Shown one piece after another: positions 29,265 to 30,067 of a stretch of 64,000 bases of DNA. Origin of the DNA: a virus (taxonomy: Duplodnaviria; Heunggongvirae; Uroviricota; Caudoviricetes); the IMG/VR virus record IMGVR_UViG_3300025133_000025. One strand, 5' to 3'. The number at the start of each line of letters is the position of its first letter. Position 1 is the first letter of the stretch. The translations under genes and the position numbers were made by a program. The notes below the pieces were generated by a model. The model worked only from the letters and a program-made list of their open reading frames with translations. It made no database searches and was not told the origin of the DNA.

Positions 29265-29444
29265 AAATTATTCTCCTCTTCGCTCCATCAGCACTGAAAA
29301 TAACTCATCCTGTGTTGACGATAGTTCACTTTTCCAAAGCAACCCATCAGAAAGTGCCTCATCCAACGCTGCACGGAGGCGGTCGATCTCGTACATCGCC
29401 CACGCTGGTGAGGTCCGAGAGGTCCCCCATGTTTCGGAAGCCGC

Positions 29445-29807
29445 TCAAGACTTCTCCCGGTATTGCAGTCTGGGGTCTGCCATGTCGTGCGCGCCCTCCT
29501 CGAAGAAGTGCCCCTGGTCATCAGAGCTGACCGACGGAACGTACTCATCGGGTTCCCCAGCGATCTCCCAGCACGCGCGGTGCCAGGCGCAGGGGTTGCC
29601 GGCGGGCCGGTTGTCCCAGTCGATGGAGTCCATGTCGCAGTCGACGCCGTCGAGGCGGCCGTAGCCGTCGTAGACGCCCTCGATGCGGGAGCCGTCCGGG
29701 TTGGTGACGATGGCGTCGTTCATCCAGTGGTTGATGTCGTTGGTGGCTCCCATGTTGTGGAGCAGGGGATGGCCGCAGCCGCGGCAGTCCCAAGAGAACA
29801 GGCCCAT
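29445..29807 (-). CDS. hypothetical protein in GC-rich island (about 65 percent GC)
   Basis: start at internal ATG preceded by ATAGGAGG RBS; codon usage differs sharply from neighbours. Confidence 0.5.
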   Translation of the reverse strand: MGLFSWDCRGCGHPLLHNMGATNDINHWMNDAIVTNPDGSRIEGVYDGYGRLDGVDCDMDSIDWDNRPAGNPCAWHRACWEIAGEPDEYVPSVSSDDQGHFFEEGAHDMADPRLQYREKS

Positions 29808-30067
29808 GGGGCCTCCTATCGCTTGATGTCGGTGTGGTCGGGGGCCCTGGGCAGCAAGGCCGGCGCCAATACCAGCGTTAAAAAATTCCAATCCACAGAT
29901 AAATTAAGAGTGCAAAGTCAGGAGTCATCGTCATGTTCAAGCCTTCGATCTGTTTCCTTCAAGCGCTTCCTTGCACGCTTCCGAGCAGCAGCCTTTTCCT
30001 TAGAAGATTCACGATAGACAGGGTCATCCCAATAGCCCCGTGCAGCTTCCTTCTTATGGTCGTCCAT

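Follow-up and report, generated by a model that had tools for sequence, protein, structure and literature searches.

Where did the short GC-rich patch near the middle of the viral record IMGVR_UViG_3300025133_000025 (IMG/VR, Caudoviricetes) come from, and what might the small gene that it carries do? The stretch of this record that was analyzed, here called the window, spans 64,000 nt with an overall GC content of 47.7%. In a 300-nt sliding scan (mean 47.6%, standard deviation 4.3) only three patches reached at least 60% GC (1-700, 8431-8880 and 29301-29940), and the last of these, with a 300-nt maximum of 68.3% (z = 4.9), is the strongest GC outlier of the window. We consider it quite probable that a segment of about 525 bp at this site reached a tRNA-rich phage of 48% GC by recent recombinational transfer, its source being a phage or related mobile element of 62-67% GC. 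Along with one complete gene and that gene's ribosome-binding site (RBS), the segment brought the broken ends of two donor neighbours, and it sits between two resident small genes within a long run of minus-strand open reading frames (ORFs). The features concerned are listed from upstream to downstream, with GC3 denoting the GC content at third codon positions.

29918..30067, minus strand: 49-aa gene of the resident genome, adjoining the patch on its upstream side, GC3 0.46
about 29350..29875, no strand: GC-rich segment, probably imported, about 525 bp with approximate limits, 60-76% GC in 50-nt windows
29816..29845, minus strand: stump of the donor's upstream gene, its last nine codons plus stop (APDHTDIKR*) with no start codon, identified by alignment with the GC-rich contigs L004 and L006
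29812..29817, minus strand: Shine-Dalgarno sequence AGGAGG, with a 4-nt spacer (CCCC) before the ATG
29445..29807, minus strand: intact gene encoding an acidic protein of 120 aa, translation MGLFSWDCRGCGHPLLHNMG..., TGA at 29447-29445
29422..29430, minus strand: stump of the donor's downstream gene, ATG-GGG-GAC (MGD), identified by alignment with L004
29268..29396, minus strand: 42-aa ORF spanning the 3' junction, GC3 0.62 in its first half and 0.32 in its second
29040..29264, minus strand: 74-aa gene of the resident genome, adjoining the patch on its downstream side, GC3 0.43

Composition and signals of the 120-aa gene

The gene departs from its surroundings at one codon position. Its GC1/GC2/GC3 values were 0.62/0.46/0.88, while GC3 was 0.46 and 0.49 in the two upstream neighbours (49 and 113 aa), 0.40-0.45 in the downstream neighbours (74, 94, 156 and 101 aa) and 0.40-0.52 in the window's genes for a major vault protein (MVP) homologue, DnaE and ribonucleotide reductase. 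GC1 and GC2 are alike in the 120-aa gene and its neighbours, and the whole difference lies at third codon positions.

Most descriptive points of the original prediction, made earlier for this DNA, are borne out by these data. The translation of the minus-strand ORF 29445..29807 agrees, a perfect RBS (ATAGGAGG) is present upstream of it, the protein is indeed rich in Cys and Trp (five of each in 120 aa, 4.2% each), and codon usage is unlike that of the flanking genes (GC3 0.88 vs 0.40-0.52). Five other long ORFs were found in the patch (184, 165 and 72 aa on the plus strand, 86 and 82 aa on the minus strand), none of them with a coding-like GC3 pattern, in line with the claim that spurious high-GC ORFs occur on both strands; stop-poor frames are expected in GC-rich DNA and account for them. 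The prediction of a compositionally deviant patch held, with a length slightly greater than the roughly 450 nt given there, as the 50-nt GC scan extends the patch to about 525 nt. The description of the patch as a second island is also apt, an earlier GC-rich patch with a 92-aa ORF being present at 1-700.

According to the ORF listing, the frame of the gene stays open upstream to a TTG at 29891, which would give a protein of 148 aa. This start was rejected because every homologue begins at an invariant Met-Gly, which places the start at the ATG at 29807. The same GATAGGAGG precedes the homologous gene in L004 and L006, and the sequence comparison thus indicates that the AGGAGG of the 120-aa gene arrived with the donor DNA. 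The spacer measures 6 nt in the two closest relatives. A scan restricted to the sigma-70 consensus detected no sigma-70-like promoter near the gene. The sole terminator-like match (29800-29814) is a perfect palindrome, AGGCCCCATGGGCCT, that covers the start codon; it was rejected as a terminator, since it overlies the start and is not conserved in the relatives. Long ORFs from approximately 12.6 kb to the end of the window at 64 kb are predominantly minus-strand, as are the genes called around the patch in public contigs, and we infer that the 120-aa gene is read within the surrounding minus-strand transcription unit. Compared with its nearest relatives, the gene had a dN/dS ratio of 0.38-0.44.

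GC-rich relatives, junctions and the recipient phage

A collection of 5.8 billion proteins contained 86 homologues of the 120-aa protein, none of them named. The closest (P0001, 90% identical) is encoded on the 708-bp contig L006, followed by P0002 (76%) on the 27-kb contig L001 and P0003 (72%) on contigs L004 and L005. These four contigs have a GC content of 62-67%, and the gene there equals the contig background; in five more loci on IMG/VR viral contigs (56-67% GC) it was again found at background composition. Among the loci compared, the gene deviates from its background only in the window. With a GC3 of 0.88 vs 0.90-0.93 in its GC-rich relatives, it has undergone essentially no amelioration.

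The relationship extends to the DNA itself, with 91.9% identity to L006 (aligned over 29465-29841), 87.1% to L004/L005 (29421-29847) and 80.6% to L001 (29472-29826). A sliding comparison resolved the following tracts.

window 29807-29730: mosaic tract, 95-100% identical to L004
window 29750-29570: mosaic tract, 97-100% identical to L006
window 29570-29431: mosaic tract, 92-95% identical to L004

At the sequence level the imported allele is a mosaic of alleles from two different GC-rich contigs, L004 and L006.

Both edges of the segment retain pieces of donor genes. In L004 an 84-aa gene (7357..7611) is complete, ends in APDHTDIER* and directly precedes the homologue, and contig L006 begins with ...SDHNDIKR*, like the upstream stump in the window. 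On the other side the window retains the intergenic TGAGCGNCTTCCGAAAC before the downstream stump, as in L004, where an 87-aa gene (7987..8250) begins with MGDPPIPL... at the equivalent place; homology to L004 stops at 29421, and the frame of the stump closes in the window after 23 codons (29359..29430). As the flanking genes are whole in the GC-rich contig and reduced to stumps in the window, they give the direction of the transfer. The unameliorated GC3, a DNA identity of 81-92% that includes tracts of 97-100%, and the donor-gene stumps at the edges together uphold the recent horizontal acquisition that had been proposed for the patch.

At the 3' junction, public contigs have no called gene at the position of the 42-aa ORF 29268..29396. 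This ORF may be a chance chimera, and its AT-rich part could derive from the 3' end of a resident gene cut by the import, in which case the event may have been a replacement instead of a pure insertion. No flanking repeat of more than 12 nt brackets the patch, and no gene for a recombinase, endonuclease, transposase or integrase was found in it, the 120-aa ORF being its sole intact gene. With neither bracketing repeats nor a recombinase or endonuclease at hand, the segment would have been transferred by illegitimate or short-homology recombination during co-infection.

The recipient, a large phage not yet in culture, encodes within the window a DnaE-type polymerase (phrog_405, E = 5e-233), a DNA ligase and a ribonucleotide reductase, and the window differs from a 175.7-kb metagenomic contig (ENA ERZ27249139) at three positions in 20,363 nt. 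Isolated phages are distant, with DnaE at most 31% identical, and a megablast search of 27000-33500 against 50,697 phage records gave no DNA match. An array on the minus strand (17646-27737) holds 15 tRNA genes interspersed with small ORFs. In six of them the anticodon begins with U (Pro-UGG, Ala-UGC, Ile-UAU, Thr-UGU, Val-UAC and Gln-UUG), and two further ones (Arg-CCU and Leu-CAA) read AGG and UUG. The codons read by these eight tRNAs are rare in GC-rich genomes, so the set would suit a phage of low GC whose host is GC-rich, and it suggests that the 48% GC phage shares such a host with the donors. The exchange with elements of 62-67% GC likewise suggests that the phage meets them in the same cells.

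Several other features of the window were recorded. Within the tRNA array, a 75-aa gene (26345-26572, minus strand; 13236-13463 in L007) has a precomputed Pfam match to PF27542 (ArfC), and we take this name to mean that its product may be an alternative ribosome-rescue factor. Two RNA-ligase-like paralogues (phrog_562) are encoded at 10505-11719 on the plus strand and 42461-43705 on the minus strand (E = 1e-45 and 2e-25). The MVP homologue upstream of the patch (30645-33287, minus strand, 880 aa), whose counterparts are both eukaryotic and bacterial, matches MVP_shoulder (E = 1e-21) as well as Vault and SPFH. It shares about 47% identity with many MVP homologues of bacterial and metagenomic origin, of which the named ones come from metagenome-assembled genomes (MAGs) of Myxococcales. 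For viruses, the only report of MVPs is a preprint from 2023 that describes them in two gut phages (bioRxiv 10.1101/2023.11.10.566534).

The first GC island (1-761, a 65% GC patch) consists mainly of the plus-strand ORF 157..435 (92 aa, GC3 0.89). The start of this ORF, GTAGCCATGAGGCACCTGATTGAAGACCTG (MRHLIEDL), recurs at the start of the next ORF, GTAGCCATGAGGCGCTTGATCGAGAACCTC (MRRLIENL; ATG at 435), along whose length GC declines. The island has the appearance of another such import, one whose junction was duplicated; its 92-aa protein had no relative among viral contigs. The third GC-rich patch (8431-8880, 61%) contains long overlapping ORFs on both strands with no clear third-position signal.

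The protein family and its possible role

A family profile search against 1.84 billion representatives returned 1,035 clusters at E <= 1e-3 and 703 at E <= 1e-10, with the domain nearly always starting at residue 1. Sequence comparison of 87 members defined the motifs YDGYG, WHRACW and DQGxFF, which are present in the 120-aa protein. Invariant residues are Y46, G48, Y49, G50, H76, C79 and P86, all of them kept in the window protein, and conservation of at least 90% was found for M1, G2, F4, S5, C8, C11, N26, W28, M29, G44 and D47 as well as A78, W80, G84, S92, D97, Q98, G99, F101 and P112. The long members carry variable, charged C-terminal tails, and no Pfam domain was detected in the C-terminal extensions of ten of them. 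An AlphaFold2 model built on the 87-sequence alignment (pLDDT 90.4, pTM 0.84) is mostly beta, with a strand (73-76) followed by a helix (77-82) at the HxxC half-site. Foldseek found no match to this model in the PDB at E <= 1e-3; the best fold match in BFVD was an uncharacterised coliphage protein (E = 6e-3, TM 0.49), which is not significant.

The protein would be pictured as a single compact domain held by one zinc ion, with an N-terminal CxxC and an HxxC at the start of a helix. This arrangement recalls Prok-RING_1 (PF14446) and the LIM/RING treble-clefs, with which the family has in common a CxxC knuckle and a (W/Y)HxxCW at the helix start. Sub-threshold matches to Prok-RING_1 occurred in 5 of the 87 members through the WHRACW stretch, but only 13-17 residues match (best 24.1 bits vs a cut-off of 29.1, covering 17 of 54 profile positions) and the window protein itself gives none; the family profile also weakly matches a half-site in one LIM domain of leupaxin (E = 0.36). 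In contrast to RING and LIM domains, which have eight ligands in two zinc sites, the family conserves one four-ligand site, and approximately 60 residues of beta structure separate its half-sites. A single-site treble-clef finger would fit the motif and the predicted secondary structure. Judged from these comparisons, the resemblance to treble-clef fingers is one of motif and does not amount to membership.

The window protein contains 23 D+E vs 8 K+R, and the family core has a median net charge of -9, with 81 of 87 members negative. Such an acidic core argues for binding to protein and against binding to nucleic acid, and nucleic-acid binding, which had been considered because of weak Sm/KOW-like fold matches, was rejected on these grounds.

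In the data examined, the family appears to be carried by mobile elements and not to be a host chromosomal gene. L001 (10 tRNA genes and a UvsX-like recombinase) and L004 (DUF932, phrog_1221, and GIY-YIG among about 44 small genes) are phage-like, and more distant relatives lie on IMG/VR viral contigs. With tblastn, members of 45-50% identity were found on four megaplasmids of Mycobacteriales (Mycobacterium avium, Mycolicibacterium vanbaalenii, M. alvei and Rhodococcus fascians), while the 120-aa protein and the family member P0029 gave no match in the 50,697 sequenced phage isolate records. When 185,579 species genomes were scanned for just two peptide patterns, six scattered loci emerged (Gordonia otitidis, four MAGs of unrelated phyla and one Prochlorococcus single-cell assembly); PHROGs gave no match for the neighbours of the G. 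otitidis and Prochlorococcus loci.

At the loci examined, the family gene always lies in a one-direction array of small unknown genes. In R. fascians pGS01 (L030, record 62999-72853) an array of about 17 genes in one direction starts with a single-stranded DNA-binding protein (SSB) gene and includes a family member. The array also holds DUF262, a cytosine methyltransferase and an ATP-grasp gene, and it points away from the arm that carries transfer genes and MobL, where a topoisomerase, an ATPase and a lysozyme-like protein are also encoded. In the M. vanbaalenii plasmid the family gene follows DUF4192 and a 1,575-aa methyltransferase. In L001, a tRNA-Met gene (10345-10420) overlaps the last 10 nt of the family gene (10001-10354), with four tRNA genes just upstream, and tRNA genes also account for the short additional DNA matches of L001 to the window. 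A link between the family and tRNA arrays was rejected, five other loci having no tRNA nearby, and the proximity is probably incidental.

Ocr and ArdA are anti-restriction proteins that act as helical DNA mimics without zinc. Members of the present family are likewise small, strongly acidic and borne by phages and plasmids, but no similarity in sequence or fold to Ocr or ArdA was detected and the family model is mostly beta as opposed to helical. Like leading-region anti-defence genes, the family gene lies in two plasmids in arrays with SSB and/or a methyltransferase; plasmid leading regions typically encode SSB and orphan methyltransferases and show an enrichment of anti-defence genes (PMC11541004). 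Together with the acidity of the protein, these leading-region-like arrays make a role in establishment or anti-defence, the latter already raised by the original prediction, the most likely single guess, although a tentative one that we hold to be well short of even odds. On this proposal the protein would act early, when the element enters the cell, as an inhibitor of a host factor or a defence system. The combined picture of a zinc-held domain that binds protein and acts early in this way is equally doubtful. Still less likely, though worth stating, is the broader proposition that the family is a large, wholly unannotated one of acidic proteins stabilised by zinc, with a fold unseen in the PDB and about 1,000 clusters at 50% identity, and forms a new anti-defence or establishment class common to phages and to leading-region-like arrays on the entry side of actinobacterial megaplasmids.

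Competing explanations and meaning of the probable import

Could the patch be an artefact of assembly, with reads from a GC-rich phage misjoined to the contig? The one sign that might point this way comes from sample ERZ27249191, where two contigs of the same phage (L010 and L013) end at 29811 and begin at 29604, inside the patch; the sample may contain another genome with a near-identical cassette, or coverage may have dropped at high GC. Breaks of this kind are expected where a sequence is common to several genomes or poorly covered. Three ENA samples and two Logan runs, at least five samples in all, contributed seven contigs of the phage, which match the window at 99.75-100% identity along stretches of up to 20 kb. 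The patch is crossed by four of these contigs (two counts of ENA ERZ27249139, plus Logan SRR5701579 and SRR5467136); all four carry it, with no differences inside it and with the same sequence through both junctions, which makes a chimera highly improbable. We regard it as just as improbable that the gene is ancestral and owes its high GC to amino-acid composition or to a constraint on RNA structure. No island-free relative of the phage is available for a synteny comparison, which leaves this explanation some room, but GC1 and GC2 equal those of the neighbours and only synonymous positions differ, the high GC continues beyond both ends of the ORF into non-coding remnants, and the patch has DNA tracts of 97-100% identity in common with contigs of 62-67% GC.

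The original prediction had also considered a host-derived moron, that is, a gene captured from the chromosome of the bacterial host, and here it finds no support. High GC would suit a GC-rich host, and six loci in bacterial genome assemblies, including that of G. otitidis, hold a homologue. These genome matches, however, are scattered over unrelated phyla and mostly lie on short contigs, whereas the closest relatives (72-90% protein identity) are found on contigs of phage-like character that hold tRNA arrays, DUF932 and a UvsX-like recombinase, the more distant ones on viral contigs and plasmids, and the edge stumps match small genes of a phage-like contig rather than chromosomal genes. A capture from the host is therefore rated as a slim chance. 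Somewhat more room, though still little, is given to the idea of a functionless passenger, in which neutral imported DNA was fixed by chance and the gene is silent or useless in its new genome. The patch has no promoter of its own, the RBS spacer measures 4 nt vs 6 nt in the relatives, the perfect palindrome lies across the start codon, and after so recent a transfer the intactness of the ORF is hardly informative on selection in the recipient. Against this, the ORF is intact with all invariant family residues kept, the gene is co-directional with its neighbours, and every sampled phage contig that reaches the patch carries it without differences inside.

Compared with known kinds of mobile cargo, the preferred explanation of a recombinational transfer from another mobile element describes neither a self-mobile element nor a textbook moron. 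Transposons and homing-endonuclease cassettes bring terminal repeats or a target duplication together with a mobility gene, and neither such repeats nor such a gene were found at the patch. The term moron, said to go back to Hendrix and Juhala, denotes additional genes that have been inserted among the conserved ones of mosaic phage genomes, and classical morons carry their own promoter and terminator. The 120-aa gene is likewise a single, composition-deviant, horizontally acquired accessory gene between two residents and is not needed for neighbouring functions; yet neither a promoter nor a terminator of its own was detected in the patch (sigma-70 consensus scan), broken donor-gene ends are present, and the source is another phage or a plasmid and not the host.

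A number of points weigh against the transfer as we describe it and against the role proposed for the protein. The GC-rich edges, about 70 bp at 29350-29420 and 28 bp at 29848-29875, match none of the contigs compared, so that the actual donor must be a relative of L004 and L006 and neither of the two themselves; this exact donor was not found, and an exact 23-mer and 28-mer of the patch are absent from viral contigs. The empty site has never been seen, as no relative of the recipient phage that reaches the patch site was found. Used as a query, the MVP homologue had no relatives in the viral or metagenome contigs searched, the one 73% identical MVP relative is on a 4.1-kb contig (L019) that ends 320 nt past the MVP gene, the 113-aa neighbour is an ORFan for which no homologues were found, and an exact 30-mer of the upstream flank is absent from JGI metagenome contigs. 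The 4-nt spacer between AGGAGG and ATG is short. As to function, the Cys3His site formed by C8-x2-C11 and H76-x2-C79, with its single set of four ligands, is a putative zinc site, and Pfam, PHROGs, NCBIfam and PADLOC, none of which is dedicated to anti-defence, gave no match for the protein or seven of its relatives. No partner gene is conserved across the loci in an all-against-all comparison of neighbourhoods, the plasmid arrays resemble leading regions in their layout, and the proposed function is read from composition, motifs and neighbourhood only.

As an event, a recent import of this kind would be ordinary, since phage genomes are mosaic and single accessory genes move between them. It is an unusually clean case, with an unameliorated import, recognisable donor stumps and a recombinant allele, and it represents gene flow between phages of very different base composition. 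The protein family is the more useful lead, being sizeable, unannotated, modelled with confidence and, in the data examined, confined to mobile elements. If its members proved to be anti-defence or takeover factors, one new family would be added to those already known, and the wider proposition of an establishment class, if true, would mean a new class of factors useful enough to be exchanged between phages that lie 15-20 percentage points apart in GC.

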